A stretch of DNA of 64,000 nt. It comes from an uncultured bacterium. Its GTDB lineage: Bacteria; Patescibacteriota; Patescibacteriia; Patescibacteriales; UBA12465. Below the pieces are notes generated by a model. It worked only from the letters and a program-made list of their open reading frames with translations. It had not been told where the DNA came from and ran no database searches. Positions 1,107 to 22,864 of this stretch are shown one piece after another (position 1 is the first letter of the stretch; every line of letters begins with the position of its first letter). Both the position numbers and the translations under genes were made by a program. The stretch lies in assembly GCA_938003925.1 (NCBI GenBank), contig CALKWQ010000047.1, positions 1,048 to 65,047 of the forward strand, in the 5' to 3' direction.

Positions 1107-1110
1107 TAGA

Positions 1111-1185
1111 GCTCCCCAGATTACATATTTTCAGAACTATGTAATATATTCCCTGCCCTTATGATTAGTTTGGGTAAATTAATAA
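1111..1185 (-). repeat. Cassette-boundary module copy R2 (75-bp core, no terminator hairpin)
   Basis: gctccccagattacatattttcagaactatgtaatatattccctgc...attagtttgggtaaattaataa. It is collinear with R1, R3 and R4 and starts 14 nt after the stop of gene 1199..2362. Confidence 0.75.
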
Positions 1186-1198
1186 GAATTTAGTTAAA

Positions 1199-2362
1199 TT
1201 AAGTCGTTTTAAATTCTTTTTCATGCAAGTTATAGTTCCATTTATCATGATAGTAGGTATCGTTACTATTTTCAGCAATTTCATTAAAGATACGCTTGAA
1301 GAATTCAGGCTTTGTGGTATTGATAAATTGCCTGGAATCTTCAGATAGCTTACCCTTCTTATACAGATCAATTAATTGTTTATAGTGATCATCAGTAAAT
1401 TCTTCACCATATTTCTTTAAACCTAAAGACTCCATTTCCGCCTCTAGTACTTGCTTGCGAGCATAACGTTCTTCTTGACTATTAAAATAATTACCCAAAA
1501 TCCTTTTTGTTTCCTCTAAATCCTTAACGCTAGTATTTTTAAGATAATCTTTAAATTCAGGCTCATCCCAATTAATTTTTTTACCAGAATGGCCTATTAA
1601 CCTATTTGCCTTACGAGAATAATTACGACCATCAACTAATTTATGGCCAATCACTTCATGTTCAACTACAAAGTCATGCTTTTCACTGTTTTTGGGCAGA
1701 ACGACGGAAAATCTTTTTTCATCGCTTGTATAATTAGCTTCATTATCTGCTAAATAATAACCGCCCATCTCTAAATTATTTAATCTTTTTAATTGATGTT
1801 CTTTAGCCGTCTCCATGTCCACATTGTACTCAACCATTAGTTTTTCAAGATATTCGGGACTAGCAATATGCTCTGCCAAAAGTTTGATCTTAGCATCGTA
1901 ATATTCAAAATCTTTCTTATTTTGAATAAAATCTTCTTGCTCAAAGTGAACATTACCAACATTTTTTGTTTCTAAATTAGGATTTTTTAAATATTCTTCA
2001 TAGGCGCTAATGAGCGATTGAATCTCATCTAAATTTTCTACCGAAAGACGTCTTCTCGCTTTTTCTAGAGCTTCTTTTACCCTTTCTATATTATAAGATA
2101 ATAAGCTGTCGGGATTCTCTTGTCGATATCTAACATCAGCTCCGATATAATTCTTCTTCGATAAATCATACTCTCTCTCTACGGGCTGTTCAGGATGAGA
2201 ATATTCTTTATTAATTGTATCCTGATTCTTATCTATTTGCTCCTGAGCTTGAGCTTCTCCCGCAATAATACCAACACCAATACCAGCTATTAGGGCTCCT
2301 TTTCTAAGAATTCTTTCTCCCCGTTCCTTTCCTTTGTGCACAAATGATTCAAATTTAAACAT
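1199..2362 (-). CDS. Hypothetical membrane-anchored or secreted protein, 387 aa (cassette gene)
   Basis: N-terminal hydrophobic segment ALIAGIGVGIIAG followed by a long hydrophilic region. It contains VVEHEVIGH, which is HExxxH-like rather than canonical HExxH. No family recognised. Confidence 0.6.
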   Translation of the reverse strand: MFKFESFVHKGKERGERILRKGALIAGIGVGIIAGEAQAQEQIDKNQDTINKEYSHPEQPVEREYDLSKKNYIGADVRYRQENPDSLLSYNIERVKEALEKARRRLSVENLDEIQSLISAYEEYLKNPNLETKNVGNVHFEQEDFIQNKKDFEYYDAKIKLLAEHIASPEYLEKLMVEYNVDMETAKEHQLKRLNNLEMGGYYLADNEANYTSDEKRFSVVLPKNSEKHDFVVEHEVIGHKLVDGRNYSRKANRLIGHSGKKINWDEPEFKDYLKNTSVKDLEETKRILGNYFNSQEERYARKQVLEAEMESLGLKKYGEEFTDDHYKQLIDLYKKGKLSEDSRQFINTTKPEFFKRIFNEIAENSNDTYYHDKWNYNLHEKEFKTT

Positions 2363-2543
2363 ATGTTTGTATTATAATATGACTATATTATAGCTTAATT
2401 TTGTAAAATTTAAAATTAATTAGTACATTCAATGTTGAAGTACAATACCTGCCTTTTCATAAAATAACTTTATAACGCCAAAAAGTTCTATCTCCCATCC
2501 GGGGTATAACAAAAAACCCAATATTAATGGGGTTTTTAGCTTA

Positions 2544-2645
2544 GCTCTGCGAATTACATATTTTCAGAATTATATAATATATTCCCTGCTATAAAAATTA
2601 GTTTAGATAAATTAAAAACCCTGAAACTTTTTTGTCTCAGGGTTT
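2544..2645 (-). repeat. Cassette-boundary module copy R3 (75-bp core + different terminator hairpin)
   Basis: Core at 2544-2618. The hairpin at 2617-2645 reads on the minus strand AACCCTGA-N11-TCAGGGTT followed by TTTT, after the stop of gene 2664..2960. A second hairpin with a T-run (AAACCC-N9-GGGTTTTTT on minus) lies at ~2513-2537. Confidence 0.75.
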
Positions 2646-2663
2646 AACTAAAAAATAATTGGC

Positions 2664-2960
2664 TTATTCACATTTATCACGAATCATCAAATCTTTGTCT
2701 TCGCGTATAATCACCCAACCATTTTCTAAGAGCGTTTTCGTGAAATATCCCAGTTGAAAATTTAAAACGCTATCAATTACGATATCTGTAACGAATTTGG
2801 AATTTTTTTCACTATAACGATGACTCTCTACCATGCCGAAGTAATTTTCCACGGCTTCAAAAGCTGTTTCTCGAGGCAGCACAAATGGTAAGCTGTCTTC
2901 TTTTTCAAATATAATCCAACAATGAACAGGATTATTTACTCTTAACTGAATTGATTTCAT
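2664..2960 (-). CDS. Hypothetical protein, 98 aa (cassette gene)
   Basis: The track ORF 2664..3035 starts at a TTG that is really the TTGACA -35 box. The first ATG (MKSIQLRVNN) is at 2960, downstream of the promoter at 3007-3035. Confidence 0.55.
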   Translation of the reverse strand: MKSIQLRVNNPVHCWIIFEKEDSLPFVLPRETAFEAVENYFGMVESHRYSEKNSKFVTDIVIDSVLNFQLGYFTKTLLENGWVIIREDKDLMIRDKCE

Positions 2961-3006
2961 TATCTTGATTTTAAGGTTCAACAATACTATTTTAACTAAC
3001 AAAAAA

Positions 3007-3035
3007 AGTATACCATACAGTATACTTTTTGTCAA
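3007..3035 (-). promoter_or_regulatory. Sigma-70-type promoter for gene 2664..2960
   Basis: Minus strand reads TTGACA (3035-3030), a 17-nt spacer, then TATACT (3012-3007). This is the same architecture as the core infA-operon promoter at 59907-59935. The spacer and -10 form the palindrome AGTATAC/GTATACT flanked by A5/T5. Confidence 0.6.
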
Positions 3036-3039
3036 CAGA

Positions 3040-3136
3040 GCTCTGCAGATTATATATTTTCAGAGTTATATAATATATTTCCTGCTGTTAAATTAAGTTT
3101 AGACAAATTAAAAAGGATTGTCGTGTTTGACAATCC
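3040..3136 (-). repeat. Cassette-boundary module copy R4 (75-bp core + terminator hairpin homologous to R1)
   Basis: Core at 3040-3114. The hairpin at 3115-3136 reads on the minus strand GGATTGTC-aaacac-GACAATCC followed by TTTTTAATTT, after the stop of gene 3157..3516. Confidence 0.8.
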
Positions 3137-3156
3137 CCTTAAATAAATTCTTGTTT

Positions 3157-3516
3157 TTAATTAACCGGTGGGGTGTAGCGACAAGAATAGTATTCTACCG
3201 AAAAAGATGGCTTTAACTCCTCAATTTTTCTGATGGCTAAAGCCTCGTCGAAAAAATTACCAGATTTTTCCCTGAGCACATCCTCGCTCACATTTCCGTC
3301 TTTTGCCAAACTTCTCGCCTCTTCAGTAAGTTCAACAATTACTTCAGCCGTAGGGTCAATATACTTTTTAAGGCCACCATCAATTTTCTCATAAACAGTA
3401 ATAATACTGCTTGAAGGCTCAATGGCTATACCAAAGGTTAAAACTGGTAATATATAATCCATAAAAAACTTTTCAATCTCGGCGTTTCTTTCACCGCCCT
3501 TAAGTATTACTTTCAT
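3157..3516 (-). CDS. Hypothetical protein, 119 aa (cassette gene)
   Basis: Strong Shine-Dalgarno (AGGAGG) about 8 nt upstream of the ATG at 3516. It has its own promoter and terminator. No family recognised. Confidence 0.6.
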   Translation of the reverse strand: MKVILKGGERNAEIEKFFMDYILPVLTFGIAIEPSSSIITVYEKIDGGLKKYIDPTAEVIVELTEEARSLAKDGNVSEDVLREKSGNFFDEALAIRKIEELKPSFSVEYYSCRYTPPVN

Positions 3517-3567
3517 TATAAAGTCCTCCTATTTTATGTTGTTAATATGCGATTTGATAACACAAAA

Positions 3568-3596
3568 AGCATACTATAATGTATGCTTTTTGTCAA
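3568..3596 (-). promoter_or_regulatory. Sigma-70-type promoter for gene 3157..3516
   Basis: Minus strand reads TTGACA (3596-3591), a 17-nt spacer, then TATGCT (3573-3568). The spacer and -10 form the palindrome AGCATAC-tataat-GTATGCT flanked by A5/T5. Confidence 0.55.
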
Positions 3597-3600
3597 TAGA

Positions 3601-3635
3601 GCTCCCCGTGTCAGATTAGAACCTTGAATTCGGGG
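3601..3635 (-). repeat. tRNA-3'-end-like remnant (module copy R5, truncated)
   Basis: Minus strand reads CCCCGAATTCAAGGTTCTAATCTGACACGGGGAGC, followed by TCTATTGACA exactly as in R2. GGTTCTAATC resembles a T-loop and ...GGGGAGC an acceptor 3' strand. Compare the real tRNA end GGGTTCGAATCCCACCCTGGGAGCCA. Confidence 0.5.
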
Positions 3636-3784
3636 ATTTATAAGGGGTTTAAGTGGACTATTTAGATGGCAAAATAACGGAAGTCGGTCGGGGTTTCGAG
3701 GGGAAAAATGGGACAAATGGGACAGTACAAAGGTCTTATTTTATTGACTATTTGACAGAATAAGAAAATATTTGTAATAAAAAA

Positions 3785-10013: not shown

Positions 10014-11345
10014 ATGCAAAACAACAATCTAAAAATCGTGGAAGTTGCGATCAACCAACTTAACCTCGCACCATACAATCCCAGAAAGCACACTCGTGAG
10101 CAGATGATTCAGCTTCAAGAATCAATTAAGAGGTTTGGGATCGTGGACCCCGTGATTCTAAACGGTGTGCCGGAAAGACTAAATGTCGTTATAGGTGGAC
10201 ACATGCGCCTGCAAGCTTTACATGAGCTTGGTGAAACAATAGTTCCGGCTGTCTATGTCCATATAGCAGACATAGAAAAAGAAAAAGAATTAAATTTGCG
10301 TCTTAATAAAAATACTGGCGAATTCGATTATAATCTCTTAGCCGAATTCGATGAATCATTTCTTCAAGACGTTGGATTCAGTAGTGAAGAAATCGATGAC
10401 ATATTCCCGGTCGAAATAGCTACCGATCAATTCGATTTAAAGAAAGAATTGGAAAGACTTCAGATTACTGAAGTAAAAGCCAAGACCGGCGATGTCTATA
10501 ACTTAGATGGGTCAAGACTTCTGGTCGGAGATTCAATGATAGAAGAAAACATGATGACGCTGATGGATGGAAACAAGGCCGACATGTGTCTTACCGATCC
10601 CCCTTACATCCTCGATTACTTAAAAGGAAAAACTAAAAATAAAGATGGAGTAACTGAAGGCTTTGGTGCTAAGAAGAATCGGATATATATCGGTACCGAA
10701 TCATTGCCGGATAATTTTACCGAACTCTGGATGGGCAATATCAGTAAAGTGGCTAAAGATAATTTTTCAATCATCGTCTATGAAAATTGGAAGAACCTAA
10801 GGACTATCTGGAGTGAGATGGAAAAATATTGGAAGGTGAAAAATATGATCGTCTGGCATCTACCCAATCGAGTACAGGGTTTCTCAGTCAAGCATAAATT
10901 TTTCAATAAACATGATATTGCCATAACCGGCGGAAGCGAGGATGTTGAGCTAAATACGGAAAGCGAAGGCGATGAGCTATTGGATAATGAATATGAAACT
11001 GCCCTATATGCTATTTCCGGCAATCCTTATTGGGAATCATATGGCAGGGGCAAAAAGATATGCCCAACCGATTTCATTGAATACATTGCTGATGATGCGA
11101 AATCTTCCGGACAAGGCATTATCTTTGGCACTAAGCCATTAGAGATACTTATCCCCTATATTAAAGTCTTAACTAAACGTGGGGATTTGATAGTTGAACC
11201 TTTTGGCGGAAGCGGGTCGACGCTTATCGCTTCTGTAAGGATGGGGCGCCGCTGCTTCATTATGGAAAAGTGTCCTATCTATGCTGAGGTAATTATCAAA
11301 AGATGGGAAAAAGAAACTGGAAAAACCGCCCTTAAGTTAAATTAA
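10014..11345 (+). CDS. ParB-like nuclease domain fused to a DNA methyltransferase (N6A/N4C type), 443 aa
   Basis: The N-terminus is ParB/Srx-like (LNLAPYNPRKHT...IGGHMRLQAL). The methyltransferase motifs are CLTDPPY and the AdoMet motif EPFGGSGSTLIA. This architecture is typical of phage or plasmid orphan methyltransferases. Confidence 0.8.
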   Translation: MQNNNLKIVEVAINQLNLAPYNPRKHTREQMIQLQESIKRFGIVDPVILNGVPERLNVVIGGHMRLQALHELGETIVPAVYVHIADIEKEKELNLRLNKNTGEFDYNLLAEFDESFLQDVGFSSEEIDDIFPVEIATDQFDLKKELERLQITEVKAKTGDVYNLDGSRLLVGDSMIEENMMTLMDGNKADMCLTDPPYILDYLKGKTKNKDGVTEGFGAKKNRIYIGTESLPDNFTELWMGNISKVAKDNFSIIVYENWKNLRTIWSEMEKYWKVKNMIVWHLPNRVQGFSVKHKFFNKHDIAITGGSEDVELNTESEGDELLDNEYETALYAISGNPYWESYGRGKKICPTDFIEYIADDAKSSGQGIIFGTKPLEILIPYIKVLTKRGDLIVEPFGGSGSTLIASVRMGRRCFIMEKCPIYAEVIIKRWEKETGKTALKLN

Positions 11346-11349
11346 ATAT

Positions 11350-11976
11350 ATGATAGGAGAAGAAACAAAGAAAAAAGTATTAAGCGAGCTAGAAAAATTC
11401 GGAAACGTATTCTATGCCTGTAAAAAGAATGGGGTAAGCACCTCTACTTATTACCGCTGGTTTGAAAATAACAGAGATTTTAGAAAGAAAGCTAAAACAG
11501 CTATTAAAGTCGGGCAAAAGAATTATGTTGATTTAGCCGAAAATAGCTTAATCTCCAATGTCAGCAATAAAGATCAAAGAGCGATAGAATATGTCTTGTC
11601 TCATCTATCAAAAAGATACCGGAAATCAGACGAATCGAAAGTGATAATTGTTCATCGCAAAGATGCTGATAGCTACGCACCAGTAAAAAAGATAACACTT
11701 GAAGATTTATTAGAAGAACATGAAGATAAAGTAGCTAAAGAACAAGCTGAGTGGGATGCAAAAGCTAAACTGGTCTGGGATGAACTGAAAAAGAATGGCG
11801 AAATACCAACAAAACCTACTGGCGAACCAATAGGTTTTGAAGAAGTATATAAATTCAAGGTCTATATAGAAGAATATCAAAAGAAGGCTAAAGAAAATCA
11901 ATCGCAAGCTGGGCTTAAAGTCTTAGACGGAAATGTGGATAATAATGCGGATAGCGAATCAAAAGATCTTAAATAA
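11350..11976 (+). CDS. HTH protein, 208 aa (phage terminase-small-subunit-like or homeodomain-like N-terminus)
   Basis: FYACKKNGVSTSTYYRWFENNRDFRKKAK is a typical HTH pattern. The gene is translationally adjacent to the ParB-methyltransferase (4-nt gap). The C-terminal half is charged and low complexity. Confidence 0.5.
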   Translation: MIGEETKKKVLSELEKFGNVFYACKKNGVSTSTYYRWFENNRDFRKKAKTAIKVGQKNYVDLAENSLISNVSNKDQRAIEYVLSHLSKRYRKSDESKVIIVHRKDADSYAPVKKITLEDLLEEHEDKVAKEQAEWDAKAKLVWDELKKNGEIPTKPTGEPIGFEEVYKFKVYIEEYQKKAKENQSQAGLKVLDGNVDNNADSESKDLK

Positions 11977-13022
11977 CTCGCATCTAAACCTTTCCAGCCA
12001 TCGCAAGATTCAGGATAATAATACTTCGAAGTGCTATATGAGGAAGTGTAATATTTGTTAGACGAGGTTGTGGCGACAGTGCTAGAAACGGTCGAGGATA
12101 CAGAAGATGAATCGGCCGCTTTAGTCGTATCACCATTACAGGTATCAGCCGCCCATAAGCCACGCAGATTAGTGCTTGCTTCTTTTTGAGCTTCCTTAAA
12201 CTGAGCTTGATATTTATATGGCTTGTTATAGGTATATTCATGGGCGTAGCCATCTCTTATCATCTTGTCATTATAGAAAGTGCCGTCTTCTAAATAGACA
12301 TATTTTAATGGCCTGGAATATTTATCTAATTCTTCAGTAGTAGAATCATTTTCTAATCTCACCATCTTGCCGGATAATAATTCTTTGGCCTTAGCTGAAG
12401 CTTCTTTGCCGAAACATTGGACAACTTTCCTCGGGTCAAGAGTTTCCGGAGTATCCATGCCTATCAATCTGATGGTTGTAGTAGCTCCATTCAAATTTAT
12501 TTTGATAGTATCACCATCAACCACTTCTAATACTTGATATAAAGTTACAGATGAAGAAGAGCTCTTATCTTTATCTGACAATTCAATCTTATTCAAATCG
12601 CTGGTCTTAATACCTAAACCTAATTTGCGCATTATCTGATAAGCGGCTTCACCATCTTTTAGATAATTAGCATTGCCATTTGAATCGATATAATAGGCTT
12701 CACCACGGCTTTGAACTTGTAGTAATATTTTGCCGGCCTGTTTCTTAGCATTATTCTTATTTGCTTTTACCTTATCTAAATCAGAGTTAGTAATACCGAC
12801 ACCGAGCGTGCGCATGATGTTATAGGCTTCTGAACCGTTAGCCATATAATATCTTTTGCCGTCTTTTGGACTGACATACCAGGCTTCGCCATGAGATTCG
12901 ACTTGAAGTAGAATCTTTCCCTTCATTTTAGAAGACAAGCTCTCTGCCCCAAATGTTTTAAATGGGATTATTCCTAAAGCAATAATTATTGCTAAAGAAA
13001 TAAATAATAATTTCTTTTTCAT
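11898..13022 (-). CDS. Secreted thermonuclease (staphylococcal-nuclease fold) with duplicated N-terminal repeats, 374 aa
   Basis: A signal peptide MKKKLLFISLAIIIALGIIPF is followed by two ~50-aa repeats (GKILLQV(E/Q)S(H/R)GEA(W/Y)Y...). The SNase core is VVDGDTIKI...IRLIGMDTPE...FGKEASAKAKELL...DKYSRPLKYVYLEDG...MIRDGYA. The tail is Ser-rich with Cys...Cys. Confidence 0.85.
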   Translation of the reverse strand: MKKKLLFISLAIIIALGIIPFKTFGAESLSSKMKGKILLQVESHGEAWYVSPKDGKRYYMANGSEAYNIMRTLGVGITNSDLDKVKANKNNAKKQAGKILLQVQSRGEAYYIDSNGNANYLKDGEAAYQIMRKLGLGIKTSDLNKIELSDKDKSSSSSVTLYQVLEVVDGDTIKINLNGATTTIRLIGMDTPETLDPRKVVQCFGKEASAKAKELLSGKMVRLENDSTTEELDKYSRPLKYVYLEDGTFYNDKMIRDGYAHEYTYNKPYKYQAQFKEAQKEASTNLRGLWAADTCNGDTTKAADSSSVSSTVSSTVATTSSNKYYTSSYSTSKYYYPESCDGWKGLDASYLRSFDSLSALLSTFPSKTLSPACD

Positions 13023-13023
13023 A

Positions 13024-13287
13024 TTATTTCTTTATCATAGATAATATCCATTCCTGGCATTTATTAGCCCAAGTAGCTGGCATCTTTGTTTTAGCTAGCT
13101 CAGCGCCATGGCCGATAATTTTTAATTCCCCCTGCCCTAAACCGACGACATCTACCACGACAGTTTCGATATCGCTAACCATTACCCTGAAAGTCTTACC
13201 ATAGGGATGTTGGAAACAAAGGAAACCATCCTTAATCTTTAAAGTTCCTCCGGCACCCAATAAACCTATCTTCATTTTTTCTTCCAT
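13024..13287 (-). CDS. Small hypothetical protein, 83-87 aa, upstream of and co-transcribed with the nuclease
   Basis: The track ORF starts at GTG 13365, inside the structured GC-rich element. Plausible starts are MEEKMKIG (13287) or MKIG (13275, preceded by GGAAG). Its stop lies 1 nt before the nuclease start. Confidence 0.5.
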   Translation of the reverse strand: MEEKMKIGLLGAGGTLKIKDGFLCFQHPYGKTFRVMVSDIETVVVDVVGLGQGELKIIGHGAELAKTKMPATWANKCQEWILSMIKK

Positions 13288-13337
13288 AAAATAATAATTA
13301 ATTATTAAATGGCTGGGTGAACCGTATAAAACAAAAA

Positions 13338-13487
13338 CGGACACCCGACCTGGTTGCGAAACCACAAACGGTGTCCGCGAAGACGCCTATTTGCATGCGG
13401 TCGGAATGTCCGTTCCTGTATGCAAATAAGCCAAGGCGGCCAACATAGTTAGCGCGTACTTCGCGGAATTTTATTTATGGTTTCGCA
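13338..13487. other. GC-rich block of nested inverted repeats upstream of the serine recombinase gene (att-like site or structured RNA)
   Basis: Complementary pairs read directly from the sequence: cggacacc 13338-45 / ggtgtccg 13370-77, enclosing GGTT-gcga-AACC. tatttgcat 13388-96 / atgcaaata 13420-28, separated by 23 bp. ccgcgaag 13375-82 / cttcgcgg 13459-66. tgcgaaacc 13355-63 / ggtttcgca 13479-87. The block is visibly GC-richer than the flanking island DNA. Confidence 0.5.
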
Positions 13488-13599
13488 CTTAAAATATAGC
13501 TTAAAAACACATAAAAGTAAAATAAAGTTGTCTACAGCTTAGGTCTGGACTTCCCTGCCGCTTTACGTCATTCATTAGGTTAAACTAACAATAAACCAT

Positions 13600-14952
13600 A
13601 TGAATCAGACAAATACTGCTCTTGGGCTTAAAACGGCCGTACAAGGGCAAATAGGGGCTAATTCAGGGCTTTTAGACGGCGAAATAAGGTATTGCTTATA
13701 CGCCAGAAAGTCCACCGAAGAAGATGAAAAACAGGCTCTTTCCATTGAATCCCAAGTTAAGGAAATGATAGAAATGGCTATCAGGGACAATATCCAGATA
13801 GCCGAAATCCGCCGGGAAAGCCATAGTGCTAAGGATTCCGGGCAAAGGCCAATATTTAACCAACTTATAGTCGATATCAAGAGAGGGGCTTTCAACGGAA
13901 TCATCTGCTGGGCGCCGGATAGGTTAAGCCGCAACGCCGGCGACTTAGGTGCGATAGTCGACTTAATGGATCAAGGGCTAATTAAAGAAATCAGGACTCA
14001 TGGCCAAAAATTTACTAATAGTCCCAATGAAAAATTCCTTCTGATGATATTAGGCTCGCAAGCCAAGCTTGAAAACGACCATAAGGGCGAGAATGTTAAA
14101 CGAGGTCTTAGAGCTAAATGCGAACAAGGCTGGCGGCCGGGGCGTCCACCACTAGGGTATCTGCACGACAAATACGCTGACAAAGGTCAGAAGAAAGTAA
14201 CAATCGACCCCAAACGAGCGCCGATAGTGAAAAAGATATTTGAAAAAATGGCTAATGAAGAATTGAGTTGCCGCAAAATACATCAATGGTTAACTACTGA
14301 AACTGATTTTAAAACAAGAAACGGAAAGCCAATGCCGCTTAGCCTTGTCCAAAGAATGATTAGAGAGCCATTTTATTATGGCGAATTTGAATATCCAACC
14401 GGAAGCGACAAATGGTATAAGGGCGGATATGAACCGATAATATCTAAAGAACTTTATACAAAAGCCAACGAAAGATTAAGGAGAAATAATATTTCAAGAC
14501 AAGATTGCAAAGAATTTGCTTTCACTAAACTTATGAAATGCGGATATTGCGGATCGGGAATAACCGCAGAAGAAAAATTCAAAAAACTGGTCGATGGATC
14601 AGTTAGAAGATATGTATATTATGGTTGTGCCAGATCAAAGAATGTTAAATGCGACCATGGCATGCTTAGAGAAGAAGAACTAATAGAGCAATTAGTCGGA
14701 CTGATGGACAAAATTGATATTAATGAAATAGGAATTAAAAACAAATTTGAAGACGAAGTAAGTAGATTCTACAAATTCAGCAAAGGAATACTGGGCGTAA
14801 CTGGAAACGACTTTGAAAAACAAAAAGATTTAGATATTAGAAACTATGCTAAATATGTGCTTAAGGAGGGCTCTATTCTTGAGAAACGAGAGGTTTTAGC
14901 ATGTCTTGAGAGTAAGTTGGTGATGAAGGAGAAGAAAATATATATGAATTAA
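13600..14952 (+). CDS. Large serine recombinase (phage-integrase/transposase type), 450 aa
   Basis: The resolvase catalytic domain is YCLYARKSTEEDEKQALSIESQ, with IICWAPDRLSRN. A recombinase domain follows. The zinc ribbon is CGYCGSGITAEEKF...YYGCARSKNVKC, followed by a coiled-coil-like tail. Confidence 0.85.
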   Translation: MNQTNTALGLKTAVQGQIGANSGLLDGEIRYCLYARKSTEEDEKQALSIESQVKEMIEMAIRDNIQIAEIRRESHSAKDSGQRPIFNQLIVDIKRGAFNGIICWAPDRLSRNAGDLGAIVDLMDQGLIKEIRTHGQKFTNSPNEKFLLMILGSQAKLENDHKGENVKRGLRAKCEQGWRPGRPPLGYLHDKYADKGQKKVTIDPKRAPIVKKIFEKMANEELSCRKIHQWLTTETDFKTRNGKPMPLSLVQRMIREPFYYGEFEYPTGSDKWYKGGYEPIISKELYTKANERLRRNNISRQDCKEFAFTKLMKCGYCGSGITAEEKFKKLVDGSVRRYVYYGCARSKNVKCDHGMLREEELIEQLVGLMDKIDINEIGIKNKFEDEVSRFYKFSKGILGVTGNDFEKQKDLDIRNYAKYVLKEGSILEKREVLACLESKLVMKEKKIYMN

Positions 14953-14956
14953 AACA

Positions 14957-16240
14957 TTACCGATTCTTTATTATTTCTAATTCCTCATTATTGATTAGTG
15001 TCTTCGTACCATTCTCCATAGAAATCTCATTCATTAATCTTCCGTTAATATCTTTTAATTTAATATCATTTATTATTGAATTATCAAACATTTTTCCTAC
15101 AACATCTTTTTTGTAATCAATAATATCTTTAATTCTTTTAAACAATTTATCTTGCATCCCTTTACCAGCACCCTGAGTATATACAGGATCATTAAAAATA
15201 TTTTCCTCCTTTAAATATTTTATGTACACCTTATTCGATTTATTATCAATTCCAATATAATTAAGCAATCTGAAAAGCGCCCCTATTCCTGTTGTCTTAA
15301 AAACTATACTTTTATATTCTTGTCTTACATAATAACCTATAATATTTTTCTTTGGGACTAAATCAATAAAATTCTCTTTTATTATATTAAAAAAATCTTT
15401 TATGCAATCAAGAACAAAGTTAAATGATTCTTTCCCATTATTGCCCTCCTTATACTCATAAAAATATTTATAAAAAATACCATTTTTTTTAACCAAAGGC
15501 ATTATGCATTCTGAAATAAACGACTGAGTTATAATGCCAAATTTTTCATCCCCTAGCATTTTAATCATTCCTTTAAACGGGCTATCCTCATCATTATTTA
15601 AATATTTAGATAAAAAATGAACAAAAGTTATATCATTTTTATCTTCTGGCATTTCTCCAAAAATATCATAATAAAGAGATCTGTTGACTTGTTTTTGATT
15701 AAAATTAACATTAGCAAATACTCCAGATTGCTGATAATAATCGTAATTTAATAAAATAGTTACTGGAAATTCAATGACTAACGAATTTTTTAAATTTGGG
15801 TATTTTTCAAAAAAATCACTAACACCAACATATCGATGTTGTCCATCAACAATTAAGACCGGCTTATTTTCCATCTTTTCTGGAATCAACAGCTCATAGC
15901 TATCCCCGTTTTTACGTATTGTTAAATTATCTAAACTTTGTTCGTTCTCGGTTTCAATAATTTCTGAATCAAACGCCACTATTAATGCGGATGGAAACAA
16001 AGATACAATATCGCTTTTATCCATTAATTTATCTTCGCCTTCAACAAATAAACTCCTCTCAATATATTTAACTATTTTCTTGGTTCTATCGGGATTAATT
16101 CTTCTCTGATATGAATCTTTTTTATTATCATCCTCCCTAACAGTTAATTTAGCTATTTTTTGCAAATCAAAAAAATTAATGTTAGCTACAAATGTATTAC
16201 TAAATATTGAATTATTTTTTAAAATATTTATTTTTTTCAT
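14957..16240 (-). CDS. DGQHR-domain protein (DndB-like, ParB/Srx superfamily), 427 aa
   Basis: Literal motif LIVDGQHRYVG, an upstream SYQRRINPDRTKKIVKYI, and a downstream FANVNFNQKQVNRSLYYDI. These are the three blocks I associate with the DndB/DGQHR family. Confidence 0.8.
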   Translation of the reverse strand: MKKINILKNNSIFSNTFVANINFFDLQKIAKLTVREDDNKKDSYQRRINPDRTKKIVKYIERSLFVEGEDKLMDKSDIVSLFPSALIVAFDSEIIETENEQSLDNLTIRKNGDSYELLIPEKMENKPVLIVDGQHRYVGVSDFFEKYPNLKNSLVIEFPVTILLNYDYYQQSGVFANVNFNQKQVNRSLYYDIFGEMPEDKNDITFVHFLSKYLNNDEDSPFKGMIKMLGDEKFGIITQSFISECIMPLVKKNGIFYKYFYEYKEGNNGKESFNFVLDCIKDFFNIIKENFIDLVPKKNIIGYYVRQEYKSIVFKTTGIGALFRLLNYIGIDNKSNKVYIKYLKEENIFNDPVYTQGAGKGMQDKLFKRIKDIIDYKKDVVGKMFDNSIINDIKLKDINGRLMNEISMENGTKTLINNEELEIIKNR

Positions 16241-16246
16241 ATAAAC

Positions 16247-17017
16247 CTAACCTTTTCTAGGATCTTGGCCCTTAAAATTAAAACTATCTTCAATGGGTTC
16301 TGATAATGCGAGCCCTTTCATAATCTCCTTTACTTCATTAATCCCGGCTTCGTTGGAACCCGGCTGACTAGAAATATATTCTAGTAATTTTTTAGAAATC
16401 CCATCAATTATTTCTCTTGCTGCGATTTGCGATGCATCAATCTTCAGGGAATCAATTTTATCTGCAAGCTTCATGGCATACTGATTTTTAACTTCATCAA
16501 TTTCAGCTATAAACTTATCCTTGATTTCTTTAAAATCTTCTTCCTGCCTCTTAATAACTTTTTCAATATCCGCATTTCCACGATCTATAAATTTATCAAA
16601 ATCTTCTCTAGCACCTTTTATTTCACCGGATTTATAAATACCAAGACCAGTGGCAATTATAAGAAGTAAAACACCATAAACATTAATAAGAATGAACAAT
16701 ATATCCCAATACTTTTCTTTAAAATCTATTCCATCATTTTTTGTATTAACAGCCTCCAATAATTTTTCATTTGCTAATGATATATTTGATTGGTTAGAAA
16801 TCGTTAAATCTAACTGTTTTTTATAATCTTGTTGATTACTTTTTATTGAATTTATATCACTATTTAATGTTGTGTTTTCTTTAACAATTAAATCTATCTT
16901 TTTATTTAAATCATTAATAACTTTTTGATCATTATCAGGAGACGCAAAAACGCATGGAACATAAATAAATATCCCAATTAAAATTACTAAATATTTTATA
17001 CTTTTTATAGACATCAT
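16247..17017 (-). CDS. Membrane coiled-coil protein, 256 aa, co-transcribed with the DGQHR gene
   Basis: N-terminal signal/TM segment (LVILIGIFIYVPCVFA), a central TM segment (WDILFILINVYGVLLLIIATGLGIY), and heptad-like charged segments on both sides. A 6-nt gap separates it from the DGQHR start. No family recognised. Confidence 0.6.
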   Translation of the reverse strand: MMSIKSIKYLVILIGIFIYVPCVFASPDNDQKVINDLNKKIDLIVKENTTLNSDINSIKSNQQDYKKQLDLTISNQSNISLANEKLLEAVNTKNDGIDFKEKYWDILFILINVYGVLLLIIATGLGIYKSGEIKGAREDFDKFIDRGNADIEKVIKRQEEDFKEIKDKFIAEIDEVKNQYAMKLADKIDSLKIDASQIAAREIIDGISKKLLEYISSQPGSNEAGINEVKEIMKGLALSEPIEDSFNFKGQDPRKG

Positions 17018-17112
17018 TACTAACTAATTATTTTTCTAGATTTTATGCCTATTTCATAAAAATAACAAGTCTTTGAAAACTTTAAATATTTAATTTATTA
17101 ATAGCTAAAAAA

Positions 17113-18030
17113 TTATAATATTTTACCTAAAACACCTTTTTCAATCATATCAAGACTAAAAATATAATCATTATGATTAAATGTTTCTCTAAGTGGACGA
17201 GATGTGCCGACCCAACCCCTACCATCAGTAACCCAAACGAATTTATATTTACCATCCAAAACATTAAATAAATCTCTATATTCTCCTGCTGTCGATTTTA
17301 ATTTAGATCCGCCACCACCATAAAAATTTGTTTCAAAAATTATTATATCTTTACCGGTATTCACAACATAGTCGTAACGGCGAGAAGATTTGTCTACTGG
17401 AACATCAAACCCCCATTCCACTTTTATTTTTTCCGCAGTCGCCTCTTTCAAATATTTGAATCCCCTGGTTTTACAAATATCAGCAATAAAGAAACCAACG
17501 ATATCTTCCATTGAATGACCACTTCTATTCTTACGACCATTACTATCCAAACCAGCTTCTACGCCAATCATATAATCAACAAGATTTTTTATTTTTTGAG
17601 ACATTATCAGATCCTTAAGTCCCGTTTCTTTAACAAAAAGAAGGTATTTTTCAATATCTTTGTCCGAGGTCAATGGTTTAGAAAAATCGTAATCTTCGTA
17701 AACCAATTTTTTCTTTTTATAATCAACTAGAATTTTAAATTTATTTGTATTACTGCCATCCCTAACAACTAAAGCTGGAATAACTTTAATAATTTCGGGG
17801 TTTTGTTTAACTAAATACTTAAATTCTTTATCAAAATCTTTTTTGCCAATTAAATAGTTTAAATTATTTAAGGCGATTTCAATTTTTTTGGTGTTAGCAA
17901 AAACCTTTTCCCAATTTACAAAATATGACCAAAGCATATTACTTGGTTTAAGATTTTTTATTAGATAATCAAAAACTTGATCATCACTTTCACACCCAAG
18001 TACTTCCTTATAAAAATTAATAAATTTCAT
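17113..18030 (-). CDS. Type II restriction endonuclease, DpnII/MboI family (GATC-specific family), 305 aa
   Basis: NLVDYMIGVEAGLDSNGRKNRSGHSMEDIV and FETNFYGGGGSKLKSTAGEY closely parallel the R.DpnII sequence as I remember it (NLVDYVTGVEVGMDTNGRKNRTGDAMENIV; EVNFYSGSGSKLNETARSY). It is the last gene of an operon with Dam-type and DpnA-type methyltransferases. Confidence 0.8.
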   Translation of the reverse strand: MKFINFYKEVLGCESDDQVFDYLIKNLKPSNMLWSYFVNWEKVFANTKKIEIALNNLNYLIGKKDFDKEFKYLVKQNPEIIKVIPALVVRDGSNTNKFKILVDYKKKKLVYEDYDFSKPLTSDKDIEKYLLFVKETGLKDLIMSQKIKNLVDYMIGVEAGLDSNGRKNRSGHSMEDIVGFFIADICKTRGFKYLKEATAEKIKVEWGFDVPVDKSSRRYDYVVNTGKDIIIFETNFYGGGGSKLKSTAGEYRDLFNVLDGKYKFVWVTDGRGWVGTSRPLRETFNHNDYIFSLDMIEKGVLGKIL

Positions 18031-18033
18031 ATA

Positions 18034-18798
18034 TTATTTAATTATATATCTCCCTGATTTTACAAATTTAATACTGTTATAGTCGTTGATATCTTTAAAA
18101 ATAAATTGCCAAATAGAGTAAACTCCTGTTTTATCATTTTTTTCAAAAAACAATGTTATAACTTTCTTTTTTGTTATTGATTGCCATTGTCTGAATGGAT
18201 AATACAATTGTCTTATAATAGTATCTTTAGTTTTCTTATTTTTAGCTTCTATTAATACTAGCTGCTTTTCCCCTTCATAGCCAGCATCGACTTCTGTTTG
18301 CACGCTATTAACACTTATTTTTTGTTTTCCCACAAAAAAACTAAATTCCGGAGTAAATTTTCTCCCTCTTATTGTTAAAACTAATGATTTATCATCAATA
18401 AAAGTTCTAATCAAACTAGAGGCATAGGCAAAATCCAAGTGCTGCATTTCAGAATTTCCTACCTTAGAAGAATCCAAAGAAAAATTCAATTTGGTATCAT
18501 ATTCTTTTATTTCTGATGTAATTTCAGGAATATCAATATAGCCCTCGCCTTTTATTATATTATAAAAACCATTTTTTACTGGCAAAATAAACAAATTATT
18601 TGAAATAAAAATATCGGGGCGGCTCTTTCGGCTATCCTGTTTACACAATATTCGTACTTCTTTCTCTGTGGTCTTTTTAAATTTTTGGCAAGATTCCTTT
18701 ATTTGATCAGCCGATAAACAAAAAGGTGATTTATTAAAATCGTGTTTTAATATTTTATAATCTTTAAATATTTGTTCCCAGGATAAATTTTTAGCCAT
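18034..18798 (-). CDS. Uncharacterised protein with a PD-(D/E)xK-like motif, 254 aa, inserted between the methyltransferase and the DpnII-type endonuclease
   Basis: ...SVQTEVDAGYEGEKQLVLIEAKNKK has D-x14-E-A-K spacing, typical of PD-(D/E)xK nucleases. The gene has 3-5 nt gaps to both neighbours. No family recognised. Confidence 0.45.
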   Translation of the reverse strand: MAKNLSWEQIFKDYKILKHDFNKSPFCLSADQIKESCQKFKKTTEKEVRILCKQDSRKSRPDIFISNNLFILPVKNGFYNIIKGEGYIDIPEITSEIKEYDTKLNFSLDSSKVGNSEMQHLDFAYASSLIRTFIDDKSLVLTIRGRKFTPEFSFFVGKQKISVNSVQTEVDAGYEGEKQLVLIEAKNKKTKDTIIRQLYYPFRQWQSITKKKVITLFFEKNDKTGVYSIWQFIFKDINDYNSIKFVKSGRYIIK

Positions 18799-18803
18799 AT
18801 TTT

Positions 18804-19583
18804 TTACGCTAACGCATTTAATCTCTGCAGAGAAAGATCTAAATAGTTTTTATCAGAATCAATTCCGACAAATTTTCTTTTATATAAATTAGCGGCCACA
18901 CCAGTAGTTGAACTGCCAGCGAAAGGATCGAGAATAATATCACCCTCTTTAGTACTAGATAGTATTATTCTTTTAAGTAAATCTAATGGCTTTTGGGTTG
19001 GGTGTTTGCCAAATTGTTTTTCTTCTTTCTTAGGTGTACCCATAGACCAAACCGAGCGCATCTGTAAATATGGTTTCTTAAATTCATCTTCTGACCAATC
19101 ACCATTTTTAATGTCTTGATAATTAAAAGTGTGTTTGGCCTTCTTCTCTTTCCTCGCCCAAATTAAAGTTTCATGACTAGCAGTAAAAAAACGACAACTT
19201 AAATTAGGGGCGGCGTTAGGTTTAAACCAAGAAATGTCATTTAAAATATGATATTTGGTGTTTTGCAATATAAAACCACACTGATATATGGAATGATAAG
19301 TGCCGCTTATCCAAATGGTGCCGTGGGGTTTTAATACTCTACGACATTCTTTAATCCAGTCAAGATGAAAATTAAAATCTTTTTGGAAGCCGTTACTTAA
19401 ATCCCAATCGCCCTTTTTAACACTTACCATTTTCCCGTTTTGGCAACTAAAACTACCGCTCGACAAAAAGTATGGCGGGTCGGCAAAAATCATATCAAAG
19501 TAATTTTCTGGGAATCTTTTCAATTCTTCTAAACAATCACCATGATATAAAGCAAAGTTTTTTTGCTTTTTATACAAACACAT
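18804..19583 (-). CDS. DNA methyltransferase, beta class (DpnA-like N6-adenine/N4-cytosine), 259 aa
   Basis: The catalytic motif IFADPPYF is near the N-terminus and the AdoMet motif DPFAGSSTTGVAA near the C-terminus. This is the circularly permuted beta order, as in M2.DpnII (DpnA). Confidence 0.85.
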   Translation of the reverse strand: MCLYKKQKNFALYHGDCLEELKRFPENYFDMIFADPPYFLSSGSFSCQNGKMVSVKKGDWDLSNGFQKDFNFHLDWIKECRRVLKPHGTIWISGTYHSIYQCGFILQNTKYHILNDISWFKPNAAPNLSCRFFTASHETLIWARKEKKAKHTFNYQDIKNGDWSEDEFKKPYLQMRSVWSMGTPKKEEKQFGKHPTQKPLDLLKRIILSSTKEGDIILDPFAGSSTTGVAANLYKRKFVGIDSDKNYLDLSLQRLNALA

Positions 19584-19586
19584 ATT

Positions 19587-20423
19587 TTATTTATAATTTC
19601 TTACTACAACCTCAGAAACATCGCCTCTTTTTTCCGCCATACAATTAATGAAACGCTTAGCACTAACCTTGGTTATGTTCCATTCTTTATATAGTTTTCT
19701 AATATAAGGAGTATCTGAATTGCTTAACATAAGTATACACCCTCGGGCATCAAGTTTCTTAAAAGTTTCTTTCAATTTTTCCTGTTCTTTTTCTAAAAAG
19801 TTTTCCTTTGTGTAGGTGGTAAAATTTGAGCCAGTATTTAACGGATAGTATGGGGGATCAAAATAAACAAAGTCCCCTTTCTTGGCATTTTGTAATACCT
19901 GTGTAAAATCGGTGTGTTCTATTTTAGTTTTTTTTAATATTTTGCTAGCCGACAATATTCCTTCTTCATTAACCAAAAACTTCTTATGCTGCCCAAACGG
20001 AACATTGAATTCACCTTTACTATTAACCCTATATAAACCATTAAAACAAGTTTTATTAAGATAGATTAAATGAGCCGCCTTATTTATTTTGTCTAGTTTA
20101 TCTGCGTTATATTCTTCTCTAATCTTCAAATAAAACTCTTTACTATGCTTCTTTTCGTATTTCCTCAATAAAGTAATTAACTCCTTTGGATGACTTTTTA
20201 TAATCTTATAAGTTTCAATTAGGTCTTTATTTAAATCAGAGATAATAGCTTCTTTTGGTTCTAAATAAAAAAAGACAGCCCCTCCGCCGATAAACGGTTC
20301 GATATATCTTTTGTAAGTTCCTTCTCTTGGAAATAATGGTTTAAATTGTTCTAATAATTGGGATTTACCACCGGCCCATTTCAAAAATGGCTCGACTCTT
20401 TTCTTTTGTTTATCTAAAATCAT
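19587..20423 (-). CDS. Dam-family N6-adenine DNA methyltransferase (DpnM-like, GATC family), 278 aa
   Basis: FLKWAGGKSQLLEQF, EPFIGGGAVFF and YFDPPYYP are Dam/DpnM hallmark motifs. It is the first gene of the R-M operon. Confidence 0.9.
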   Translation of the reverse strand: MILDKQKKRVEPFLKWAGGKSQLLEQFKPLFPREGTYKRYIEPFIGGGAVFFYLEPKEAIISDLNKDLIETYKIIKSHPKELITLLRKYEKKHSKEFYLKIREEYNADKLDKINKAAHLIYLNKTCFNGLYRVNSKGEFNVPFGQHKKFLVNEEGILSASKILKKTKIEHTDFTQVLQNAKKGDFVYFDPPYYPLNTGSNFTTYTKENFLEKEQEKLKETFKKLDARGCILMLSNSDTPYIRKLYKEWNITKVSAKRFINCMAEKRGDVSEVVVRNYK

Positions 20424-20455: not shown

Positions 20456-20484
20456 ATTATAGCTTAATAAAAATATATTTGAAA
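20456..20484 (-). promoter_or_regulatory. Candidate promoter of the R-M operon
   Basis: Minus strand reads TTTCAA (20484-20479), a 17-nt spacer, then TATAAT (20461-20456), about 30 nt upstream of the Dam start. Confidence 0.4.
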
Positions 20485-20500
20485 CCACTTTTTTAACCAA

Positions 20501-20688
20501 GTAAAAGCTGATTCTCGGATTCGAACCAAAAATCCCCTTTATTTACAGGCCTTTCCGCTTATTTGACTTAAACAAAAGAACTCAGCGCAAACTGAGTTCT
20601 TCTGATTTTTTGGTAATATTAGACCTCTCCTGTCGGTCTTAAACACCAAAATGTTGTTGGCTCTCGCAGTGATATTCGAACCTGAGTC
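20501..20688 (-). repeat. Direct repeat copy A of the tRNA-3'-flank module (includes a degenerate tRNA 3' end)
   Basis: 20536-20663 aligns without gaps to 22010-22137, with about 6 mismatches in 128 positions by eye. On the minus strand it starts with GGTTCGAATATCACTGCGAGAGCCA, compared with the real tRNA end GGTTCGAATCCCACCCTGGGAGCCA. It contains the terminator hairpin AGAACTCAG-N6-CTGAGTTCT. Confidence 0.85.
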
Positions 20689-20729
20689 GGTCTTAAAACA
20701 CGATTATCCTCTGCTGTATTTAATATTAG

Positions 20730-21924: not shown

Positions 21925-21975
21925 ATTATTTAATTAAGCTAATTATATAATAGCTTAATAATATATAAATTAAAA

Positions 21976-22162
21976 GTAAAACTGGCAGTGGGATTAGAAC
22001 CACAAATATCCTTTATTTATAGGCATTTCCGCTTATTTGACTTAAACAAAAGAACTCAGTACAAACTGAGTTCTTTCGATTTTTTGGTAATATTAGACCT
22101 CTCCTGTCGGTCTTAAACACCAAAATGTTGTTGGCTCCCAGGGTGGGATTCGAACCCACGAC
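21976..22162 (-). repeat. Direct repeat copy B of the tRNA-3'-flank module (contains the genuine tRNA 3' exon end)
   Basis: See copy A. The portion at 22132-22162 is the T-arm and acceptor 3' strand of the tRNA. The rest is the tRNA downstream region, with the hairpin AGAACTCAG-N6-CTGAGTTCT and a second T-arm-like box GTGGTTCTAATCCCAC (minus, ~21986-22001). Confidence 0.85.
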
Positions 22163-22172
22163 CAATTGGTTA

Positions 22173-22722
22173 CACTTACCCACTAATTTCTTAATGGTGT
22201 GGACTATATCATCATCCAAAATGGATGCAAGGCGCTTCGGGCCGTCTAACTAGACAGACCTACTCCCTTTCGGGATAGTCTCTGAACCTTACCTGAATAC
22301 ACAGGTCTTGGCTGCTGATTACCTTAGCCTCTCGGCCTTAGGCTTCCAGACAGTTCACCTTGTTTTCATTCCTCAATTACTTGAGGAAGCTGCGTGTTGC
22401 TTTCATGCGCCTCACGATGACAGTTTGCACATAACAATAGACACTTATCTAACTCTCTTCTTATGACTGCCCAGCTCCTGGTATAACCTTTTGCAGAGAT
22501 ACCAAAATCTTTTTTGTCAGATTCCAAATGATGGAATTCTAGAGCCTTCAAACATCTATTGTAACCGCAAACGGAACATTTGCCACCTTTGTATTCAAGA
22601 GCCAATTGACGTAGGCGCTTACGCCTCCGATCAACTGCTAACTTCAAATACTGGGCGCGATCAGCATATTTTCTCTTATCCTTTGTCATAATTACTATGA
22701 TAGCAAAAGATAAAGTGTGTTC
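22173..22722 (-). mobile_element. Group I intron in the tRNA anticodon loop, carrying an HNH endonuclease ORF
   Basis: The classical conserved group I elements are readable on the minus strand. Q-like AATCAGCAGCC is at 22320-22310, R GGTTCAGAGACTAT at 22288-22275, and S GATGATATAGTCC ends at 22201. GACTA/TATAGTC can form P7. GNRA-capped hairpins GGCC-GAGA-GGCT and CCC-GAAA-GGG are present. A G precedes the 3' exon. The exact splice sites are inferred. Confidence 0.8.
22366..22689 (-). CDS. HNH homing-endonuclease-like protein, 107 aa (intron-encoded)
   Basis: CSVCGY...LEFHHLESDKKDFGIS...LLLCANCHREAHE is a His-Me finger with CxxC...CxxC zinc ligands. It lies entirely inside the intron and starts ~33 nt after the 5' splice site. 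Confidence 0.8.
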   Translation of the reverse strand: MTKDKRKYADRAQYLKLAVDRRRKRLRQLALEYKGGKCSVCGYNRCLKALEFHHLESDKKDFGISAKGYTRSWAVIRRELDKCLLLCANCHREAHESNTQLPQVIEE

Positions 22723-22864
22723 ACAGCCAACTGCGCTACCGCTGCGCTACCTGGGAATATTAAATTGTTACCAAACAAAAAATGTTGCATTCAACATTTC
22801 CCCTTTATTTTAGGAGAAATCAAGGCCTAAGTCAATAGGCTATTTTCAGCTTAAATTAAGAAAA

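Follow-up and report, generated by a model that had tools for sequence, protein, structure and literature searches.

Phage RNAs that are embedded in leaders and act in immunity are exemplified by the CI RNA of phage P4 and the c4 RNA of phages P1 and P7, which control replication or antirepressor operons. Large serine recombinases, the second system of relevance here, recognise their attachment (att) sites by protein domains alone. For the Patescibacteria (candidate phyla radiation, CPR) and their phages, we know of almost no experimentally characterised regulatory RNAs. Here, we analyse a block of nested inverted repeats situated immediately upstream of a large serine recombinase gene in 64,000 nt of an uncultured patescibacterium (assembly GCA_938003925.1, contig CALKWQ010000047.1, positions 1,048 to 65,047). 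This whole stretch is referred to as the window, and all coordinates are counted from its first nucleotide. A preliminary description of the sequence had proposed either a recombination site of the integrase or a structured RNA of ~150 nt. Very probably, the block is a minus-strand RNA gene of a new family rather than an att site or a leader of the recombinase gene. For the complete statement, namely an RNA gene that heads a cassette and acts on it in cis, we regard the chances as even.

The inverted-repeat block and its RNA gene

The block is located in the intergenic region 13290-13599, the limits of which, as given in the preliminary description, agree with the start of a minus-strand open reading frame (ORF) at 13287 and the ATG of the recombinase gene at 13600. 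It belongs to a low-GC island (1-22 kb) adjoining a true host chromosome segment (22-64 kb, 44% GC) that encodes RpoD, DnaG, SecY, EF-Tu, EF-G, and AlaRS. All four inverted-repeat pairs described before were recovered by the repeat finder at their coordinates. These are 13338-45/13370-77 (I10; 8 nt, 100% complementary), which encloses GGTT-GCGA-AACC at 13352-13363, the TATTTGCAT-N23-ATGCAAATA dyad at 13388-13428 with its longer form 13385-96/13420-31 (I3; 12 nt, 92%), 13374-82/13459-67 (I7; 9 nt, 100%), and 13355-68/13474-87 (I1; 14 nt, 93%). Missing from this earlier list but detected by the repeat finder as well are the long-range pairing of 13336-13350 with 13399-13414 (I2) and the pairing 13331-43/13407-19. 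The minimum free energy of the block is -63.6 kcal/mol for the plus strand (z -5.30) and -68.7 kcal/mol for the minus strand (z -5.13), and for neither strand was any of 200 dinucleotide shuffles as good.

In the homologue search, relatives of the recombinase in IMG/VR gave seven loci. In two of them, L001 and L003, the block can be recognised ahead of the recombinase gene, with plainly compensatory differences; the remaining five are devoid of it. A two-block DNA pattern built from two invariant segments was run on JGI metagenomes, with ~38 distinct copies found, and on GTDB species genomes, with 22 copies nearly all of which belong to the Patescibacteria/CPR (Magasanikbacteria, Falkowbacteria, Paceibacterota, and Saccharibacteria). 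The homologue set comprises 54 distinct sequences besides the window copy, plus two divergent lineages (L003 and L212), and the hosts of the RNA loci are Patescibacteria metagenome-assembled genomes. A covariance model was derived from a hand-checked seed, and 56 hits, 54 of them distinct, were aligned. RNAalifold applied to the raw MAFFT alignment returned a pseudoknot only, because the variable stems are misaligned there; the covariance-model alignment was used in its stead. Since the latter alignment is fitted to the model, it is of importance that the same structure is independently backed by single-sequence folds and by slid controls.

Folded singly, each homologue adopts a Y-shaped structure, in which P1 (12-15 bp) is followed by an internal loop, P2 (9-11 bp), and a three-way junction with P4 and P3. 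P3 is a 12-bp helix with an invariant loop of ~20 nt, and P4 is a variable hairpin. The 3' tail takes part in two further pairings, referred to as PK-A and PK-B. The elements of the fold in the window are:

13473-13486, minus strand: 5' strand of P1, GCGAAACCAUAAAU, pairs with 13356-13369 (helix 1; 14 pairs, 9 changed on both sides, 96% of cells paired)
13356-13369, minus strand: 3' strand of P1, GUUUGUGGUUUCGC (repeat I1 and covariation)
13456-13467, minus strand: 5' strand of P2, pairs with 13374-13384 (helix 2; 11 pairs, 9 compensatory; repeat I7)
13374-13384, minus strand: 3' strand of P2 (repeat finder and covariation)
13436-13455, minus strand: P4 hairpin, variable branch of the three-way junction (helices 3 and 4; 6 of 6 modelled pairs covary), present in every homologue folded singly
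13420-13431, minus strand: 5' strand of P3, one arm of the dyad (helix 5; 12 of 12 pairs compensatory, 98.9% of cells paired)
13385-13396, minus strand: 3' strand of P3, second arm of the dyad (repeat I3 and covariation)
13399-13414, minus strand: segment AACGGACAUUCCGACC of the apical loop of P3, 5' partner of PK-A, pairs with the tail 13336-13350
13370-13377, minus strand: CGGACACC, end of the 3' strand of P2 and internal loop, 5' arm of PK-B, pairs with 13338-13345 (repeat I10)
13336-13350, minus strand: 3' tail GGUCGGGUGUCCGUU, 3' partner common to PK-A and PK-B (covariation)

Comparative analysis of homologous regions, proposed earlier as a check, revealed strong covariation in the 54 distinct sequences. 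Changes on both sides occur at 36 of the 43 modelled base pairs, and none of 500 shuffles reaches the observed values. In the covariance alignment 93.6% of the cells are paired; the slid controls reach 36-45%. Variation resides only in the paired stems; unpaired segments are either invariant, as is the case for the P3 loop and the 3' strand of the internal loop, or short and A/U-rich. The P3 loop, the tail, and the first 7 bp of P1 are invariant beyond structural need.

The gene and its predicted signals are composed as follows:

13329-13487, minus strand: structured RNA gene of ~155-160 nt, predicted 5' end at ~13486-13488 and predicted 3' end in the U tract at ~13328-13333, both ends placed by promoter and U tract
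13516-13521, minus strand: -35 hexamer TTTACT (promoter scan), TTTACT or TTGACT in 43 of 48 distinct homologous upstream regions
13493-13498, minus strand: -10 hexamer TATATT (promoter scan), ends exactly 6 nt ahead of the first G of P1 in 47 of 48 homologues
13328-13337, minus strand: U tract UUUUUGUUUU of the predicted intrinsic terminator (read from the sequence), conserved in all homologues

At least 8 of the 12 positions of the sigma-70 consensus are matched by 47 of 49 distinct upstream regions. The spacer measures 17 nt in 46 of 48 homologous upstream regions, as in the window (TTTACT-17-TATATT), and in divergent loci the -35/-10 geometry is kept with a different promoter sequence. The 3' end of all homologues is closed by a G+C-rich stem followed by UUUUUGUUUU. 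In the window this terminator stem is formed by 13370-77/13338-45 (8 bp, G+C-rich), and it is kept in 46 of 54 sequences. It was overlooked by a simple terminator scan because its hairpin loop is longer than 8 nt. In about half of the homologues a CGG(A/C) or CGGAC motif is located 2-5 nt past the U tract (13322-13325 in the window). This motif, a fourth copy of CGGAC, can pair with GUCCG of the tail, in which case the U tract becomes a hairpin loop.

The window RNA is matched by the covariance model at 13333-13486 on the minus strand with 172 bits (E 4e-43). The scores of homologues range from 74 to 181 bits for this strand and from 20 to 29 bits for the reverse strand, and the modelled pairs contain 145 G.U versus 23 A.C combinations in the minus-strand reading. 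Promoter, terminator, and strand-specific pairing are all found on the minus strand; therefore transcription of the RNA proceeds away from the recombinase gene, and the RNA does not constitute the leader of this gene. A 5' leader of the recombinase, one of the two forms in which a ~150-nt structured RNA had been suggested, is ruled out by the minus-strand promoter, the G.U excess, and the covariance scores. The other form, a stand-alone RNA with its own promoter and terminator, is upheld by the covariation and by the lack of a known family.

Regarding known families, the preliminary description had found no resemblance by eye to the RNA of the signal recognition particle (SRP), RNase P, transfer-messenger RNA (tmRNA), 6S RNA, or common riboswitches, and the scan with Rfam 15 it called for is likewise empty at the RNA position. 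At the gathering threshold, the window yields a single match, to a group I intron at 22180-22438. A permissive scan of 13200-13700 (E up to 10, both strands) gave two chance microRNA matches only (16-17 bits, E >1), and in 14 further loci no family was found at the position of the RNA. ARAGORN called no tRNA or tmRNA gene in the window, the intergenic region had no BLAST match among deposited phage genomes, and no paper on this RNA was found in the searchable literature, either by topic or by sequence string. It is highly improbable that the block is a fragment or divergent copy of a host RNA gene (tRNA, tmRNA, SRP, RNase P, 6S, or a riboswitch class) that was captured or broken by integration. 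Such an origin would fit the fact that elements of this kind adjoin tRNA genes, but it is at variance with the Rfam and ARAGORN results and with the finding that in every locus the RNA is complete, including its own promoter and terminator. The RNA rather is a new family within a well-known general type, that of structured small RNAs or leaders on mobile elements.

The cassette and the two tail pairings

Two ORFs follow the RNA gene of the window in the same orientation:

13024-13287, minus strand: first cargo ORF of 87 aa, no Pfam or PHROG match, starts ~40 nt past the U tract, homologue at the same place in L092 and L159
11898-13022, minus strand: second cargo ORF, protein with a staphylococcal nuclease domain (Pfam SNase, E 4e-23)

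The usual gene order of the RNA loci starts on the plus strand with a ParB-domain methyltransferase, a small-terminase-like helix-turn-helix protein, and sometimes the large terminase (TerL). These genes are followed, in minus-strand orientation, by variable cargo and the RNA, then by the recombinase gene on the plus strand and further variable cargo on the minus strand. In relatives lacking the RNA, TerL leads directly to the upstream region of the recombinase gene, whereas RNA-bearing loci contain cargo, RNA, and promoter, all in minus-strand orientation, at this very junction. Homology between loci ends at the -35 hexamer of the RNA. Therefore promoter, RNA, and cargo represent an inserted cassette, the conserved edge of which is the RNA -35. 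Promoter and RNA are the constant head of this cassette, which is situated beside the integrase gene of Patescibacteria temperate phages or integrative elements. In case of the window, neither large terminase nor capsid genes were found in the element, which may thus be a remnant or a satellite-like island and not a full prophage.

In ~20 of 26 loci the first co-oriented ORF begins 29-42 nt past the U tract, which leaves little space for a separate promoter. The cargo comprises an Ltp surface lipoprotein, membrane-anchored proteins with tRNA_anti-like OB-fold, bPH_2, or DUF4352 domains, a Zn-ribbon membrane protein, and nucleases of the GIY-YIG, NucS-like, and SNase types, a set typical of lysogenic conversion or superinfection exclusion. 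A single RNA is present per locus even if several cargo genes occur, and an integron-like reading is ruled out by this observation.

Both pairings of the tail are conserved. PK-A, formed by the P3 loop and the tail, is a 14-bp pseudoknot with a computed duplex energy of ~ -24 kcal/mol. All of its 14 pairs are formed in 100% of the 54 sequences, one of them as A-U in 47 and as G-C in 7 sequences. PK-B is the canonical terminator hairpin, and all 8 pairs with at most one G.U are present in 46 of 54 sequences. G.U pairs are frequent in PK-B and would read A.C on the opposite strand. A U-to-C variant of the tail is compensated in 6 of 6 cases in the loop (PK-A) and in 5 of 6 cases in the hairpin arm (PK-B). 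In the far more divergent L003, both PK-A and PK-B are retained with a different sequence and further compensations. Since both pairings covary and are kept in L003, we conclude that two mutually exclusive pairings are under selection.

Most probably, the RNA serves as a leader or attenuator, or as a stable small RNA, of a prophage cassette for lysogenic conversion, and a cis-acting role of its tail pairings is proposed here. Transcription would start from the sigma-70-type promoter at ~13487, and most transcripts would end at the U tract, yielding a compact RNA of ~155 nt with both ends paired. Transcripts escaping termination would express the cargo, and the competition of PK-A and PK-B would set the degree of read-through, so that the RNA would serve as a portable cis leader or attenuator for unrelated cargo genes. 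The released RNA may additionally act in trans. For the leader or attenuator role as such, we estimate the chances as a little short of even.

Several points weigh against this role. The ends of the RNA, the efficiency of termination, and the read-through are all predictions from sequence. PK-A and PK-B both place a helix directly before the U tract, and thus both could terminate; in that case there would be no switch, and the RNA would simply be a stand-alone small RNA (sRNA). The arm of PK-B is absent in L099, and PK-B of L048 contains two mismatches. Because the search patterns fixed parts of the loop and the tail, the invariance of these parts is partly an artefact, which does not apply to stems, N positions, and covarying positions, as these were unconstrained. 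Furthermore, an AT-rich promoter-like match at 13330-13301 overlaps the terminator, so the cargo could have its own promoter. Finally, the cargo families are mutually unrelated and functionally heterogeneous and, unlike in case of classical riboswitches, no shared pathway points to a ligand.

Quite possible, if on the less likely side, is a stand-alone prophage sRNA that is always terminated at the U tract and acts in trans or as a scaffold or decoy, with the cargo accumulating at a recombination hot spot. Stabilised by its paired ends, such an sRNA would act on a host or phage target, e.g., in immunity or anti-defence. Promoter and terminator are complete, the RNA is kept in very different contexts, and termination may be constitutive, as PK-A ends at the U tract too. 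That the loop, the tail, and the first 7 bp of P1 do not vary suggests that a partner recognises them. Yet the conserved loop is sequestered by the tail, and the co-oriented ORF that in most loci follows at a tight spacing of ~30-40 nt argues for one transcription unit with the cargo. Moreover, a search of 55 loci for trans targets matching the tail or the loop yielded only the start of one cargo family (MKKCPFC...), a match accounted for by the codons of this family, and one remnant terminator in L171. The sRNA and the cis leader or attenuator are not mutually exclusive.

This cargo family is a Zn-ribbon membrane protein starting with MKKCPFCAEE and occurs in L038, L104, L157, L164, and L172. 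Its members carry AAGUGUCCGUUUUG around the start codon, ~47 nt past the RNA; this sequence differs little from the RNA tail and is hence complementary to the P3 loop. This may be a coincidence arising from the CPFC codons or a family-specific regulatory contact.

A more far-reaching version of the cis leader or attenuator, which we consider unlikely, is a new class of cis-acting sensor. Here, the balance of pseudoknot and terminator would respond to a signal such as a metabolite, a protein of host or phage, or the infection by a second phage, and would switch on superinfection-exclusion or defence cargo. If true, this would provide prophage cargo with a portable regulatory head. In an even more extreme form, the promoter-RNA module may also mark a site of cassette exchange used together with the adjacent serine recombinase.

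The serine recombinase and candidate integration sites

On the side of the recombinase, two features were identified in the window:

13600-14952, plus strand: large serine recombinase gene, 450 aa (Pfam Resolvase, Recombinase, and Zn_ribbon_recom), divergent neighbour outside the RNA
13545-13570, plus strand: recombinase-side motif CTGGAC-N~12-TTTACGTCA, conserved upstream of recombinases with or without RNA (L002, L004-L007), outside the RNA

Seen from the RNA outward, the recombinase gene is situated 190-280 nt away in divergent orientation in about half of the loci. From the recombinase outward, 67 IMG/VR loci with relatives of 42-64% identity were inspected, and the covariance model scores only two copies on one contig among them. 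A broader model adds one weak match, L212 (26.8 bits), at the same position and in the same orientation, and a scan of the recombinase loci for the tail motif pointed to L188, L212, and L213 only. Altogether the RNA is present with ~4 of the 67 relatives (~6%), most of which have a terminase gene directly upstream of the recombinase gene, and we conclude that the recombinase family works without the RNA. Four genomes each contain an island that begins with the RNA and adjoins the 3' end of a tRNA-Ser gene, a different isoacceptor gene in each case, and no recombinase gene is located within several kb. The junctions of tRNA-Ser and RNA in these islands (L072/L168, L156, L162, and L172) measure 170 nt and are nearly identical.

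A structured RNA paired with a serine recombinase had been put forward as a novelty in the preliminary description. That the RNA is a partner of the recombinase, be it as guide, bridge, or directionality cofactor, is very unlikely in view of these data. The short distance and divergent arrangement in about half of the RNA-first loci, and the same position and orientation in the divergent lineages L003 and L212, would suit such a partnership. It is contradicted by the small fraction of recombinase relatives carrying the RNA and by the RNAs adjacent to tRNA-Ser with no recombinase nearby. Moreover, no unpaired segment covaries with the flanking DNA; the loops are invariant, and the variation is compensatory and resides in the stems.

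The TATTTGCAT-N23-ATGCAAATA dyad had been suggested as an att site of the serine integrase, a reading whose probability we now consider close to nil. Its basis was the proximity of the integrase gene and the size of the dyad, which at 41 bp is about that of an att site. The arms vary between elements but stay complementary, with all 12 pairs compensatory, G.U on one strand only, and U.G as the commonest type at one pair of P3. The dyad is also embedded in a unit reaching from promoter to terminator. Half-sites at the other end of the element had been proposed as a further check; in the window, TATTTGCAT was found in the two dyad arms only, as chance would predict.

A particularly close comparison is offered by L159, in which positions 1-3781 are essentially the same element as 11156-14939 of the window in another metagenome-assembled genome, with a 98% identical recombinase. 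Promoter and recombinase-side flanks are ~99% identical to the window, and the RNA stems alone have diverged. The dyad arms are TAATTGTAT/ATACAATTA in L159 versus TATTTGCAT/ATGCAAATA in the window, i.e., 2 positions differ per arm in a compensatory manner. Different arms next to an almost unchanged recombinase argue against an att site. The stem divergence between L159 and the window reflects either compensatory changes or allele exchange. Homology of the two ends at the stop codon of the recombinase gene, which coincides with a drop in GC content at ~14.95 kb in the window.

A better candidate than the dyad for regulatory or att DNA of the recombinase is the recombinase-side motif together with the GTTRCCAAC region. 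Its consensus is CTAGAC-N~15-TTGCGTCA, located 25-60 nt ahead of the recombinase start codon, and the motif is likewise a candidate promoter or operator of the recombinase gene. Just upstream of the RNA -35, as read in the RNA sense, two direct repeats GTAGRYAAN occur 11 nt apart. They stand out best in L036, L091, and L136; in the window (13528-13548) the first of them is degenerate, and in L050 homology breaks between the two. These repeats may be an operator common to the divergent promoters of the RNA and the recombinase gene.

RNA and recombinase gene remain adjacent within chromosomal contigs of up to 747 kb, and therefore the recombination site is not located between or within them. In L073 and L050, RNA and recombinase gene are convergent at opposite ends of a mini-island, which suggests an attP between the RNA promoter and the recombinase gene. 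This arrangement could not be established due to the mentioned adjacency in large chromosomal contigs and because other junctions are cut by contig ends. The gene order of L073 is tRNA-Ser, RNA, three cargo genes, and a convergent serine recombinase gene. Together with the tRNA-Ser islands, this order hints at tRNA-Ser as an integration target and at an att site near the RNA promoter in some lineages.

At the border of the island in the window, 22130-22765 on the minus strand, a tRNA gene is split by the group I intron mentioned above (Rfam RF00028), which carries an ORF for an HNH-type endonuclease. The acceptor stem TCCCAGG/CCTGGGA, the T arm GTGGGTTCGAATCCCAC, and a 3' GCCA are recognisable, and the gene was left uncalled by ARAGORN. 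Its position coincides precisely with the step in GC content from the host chromosome (44%) to the low-GC island. A direct repeat of ~190 nt, at 21960-22150 and 20480-20700, duplicates the 3' end of this tRNA and the downstream sequence, with a degenerate tRNA end in the second copy. The repeats flank an insert of ~1.5 kb with genes for an SGNH/lipase-like protein and a histidine phosphatase, and the repeat looks like an att-type duplication caused by integration at the tRNA gene.

Directly after the recombinase gene, at 14957-19583, the window contains defence-type genes, among them those of a DndB-like protein and a DpnII-type restriction enzyme; the ORFs beyond these were scanned in part. 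An N6/N4 DNA methyltransferase is encoded at 19587-20423. Two copies of the recombinase family each were observed on the IMG/VR contigs 3300042286_000458, 3300000970_000154, 3300014205_009253, 3300014208_000734, 3300032737_000190, and 3300009873_002614 (24-55 kb), the first of which also contains two RNA cassettes. These contigs could represent tandem or related elements or, alternatively, assembly concatemers.

Comparison with described systems

The RNA described here is a well-supported new family of Patescibacteria/CPR phages that is absent from Rfam 15 and the searchable literature. As a conserved RNA ahead of changing cargo, it provides a handle for finding genes of lysogenic conversion and superinfection exclusion in CPR prophages, and it may exemplify a new mechanism, either of attenuation or similar to that of riboswitches.

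With pseudoknot-closed, terminator-coupled leaders and riboswitches such as those for ZTP, preQ1, and fluoride, the RNA shares its promoter-proximal position, the co-oriented ORFs downstream, the multi-helix fold, and the pseudoknot between a loop and the 3' tail. In both cases a conserved alternative pairing forms the intrinsic terminator, and here both pairings covary. As a difference, it is the 3' arm of the terminator that both pairings share, and both states end at the U tract. Furthermore, there is no Rfam match, and the RNA is associated with heterogeneous prophage cargo rather than with one pathway.

In general terms, the P4 CI and P1/P7 c4 RNAs are also comparable, as phage small RNAs from the 5' part of an operon that contain mutually complementary segments and for which termination is the likely output. 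The RNA of the window differs from them in the lack of sequence or structure similarity and in the variable cargo downstream, and processing by RNase P is not indicated. Morons and lysogenic-conversion cassettes, e.g., ltp of Streptococcus phage TP-J34, resemble the cassette as autonomous units from promoter to terminator between packaging genes and integrase gene, and Ltp-family lipoproteins and other surface proteins are found as cargo in both. Classical morons, however, are without a conserved structured RNA between promoter and ORF, whereas here the RNA is conserved and the ORF is variable.

The bridge or seek RNAs of IS110/IS1111 elements are similar in that a structured non-coding RNA of ~150-190 nt is located in non-coding DNA beside a recombinase gene. 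Here, the recombinase is of the serine type with Resolvase, Recombinase, and Zn_ribbon_recom domains and not of the DEDD type, and the RNA is transcribed away from its gene. Programmable internal loops are lacking, and the RNA is missing from ~94% of the recombinase relatives and also occurs without an adjacent recombinase gene. A structured RNA beside a recombinase gene is thus not in itself evidence of an RNA-guided recombinase; the search from the recombinase outward showed the two to be uncoupled in this case.

The attP and attB sites of phiC31, Bxb1, and TP901-1 have the nearby integrase gene and a sub-element of about the size of the ~41-bp dyad in common with the locus. The dyad, in contrast, is not conserved even with a near-identical integrase, varies in a compensatory manner with strand-specific G.U pairs, and lies inside a transcription unit. 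Integron attC sites, finally, are folded elements beside variable cassettes with a divergent recombinase gene, as observed here. They differ from the RNA of the window, which occurs as one element per locus, is equipped with a promoter and a U-tract terminator, and is accompanied by a serine and not a tyrosine recombinase.

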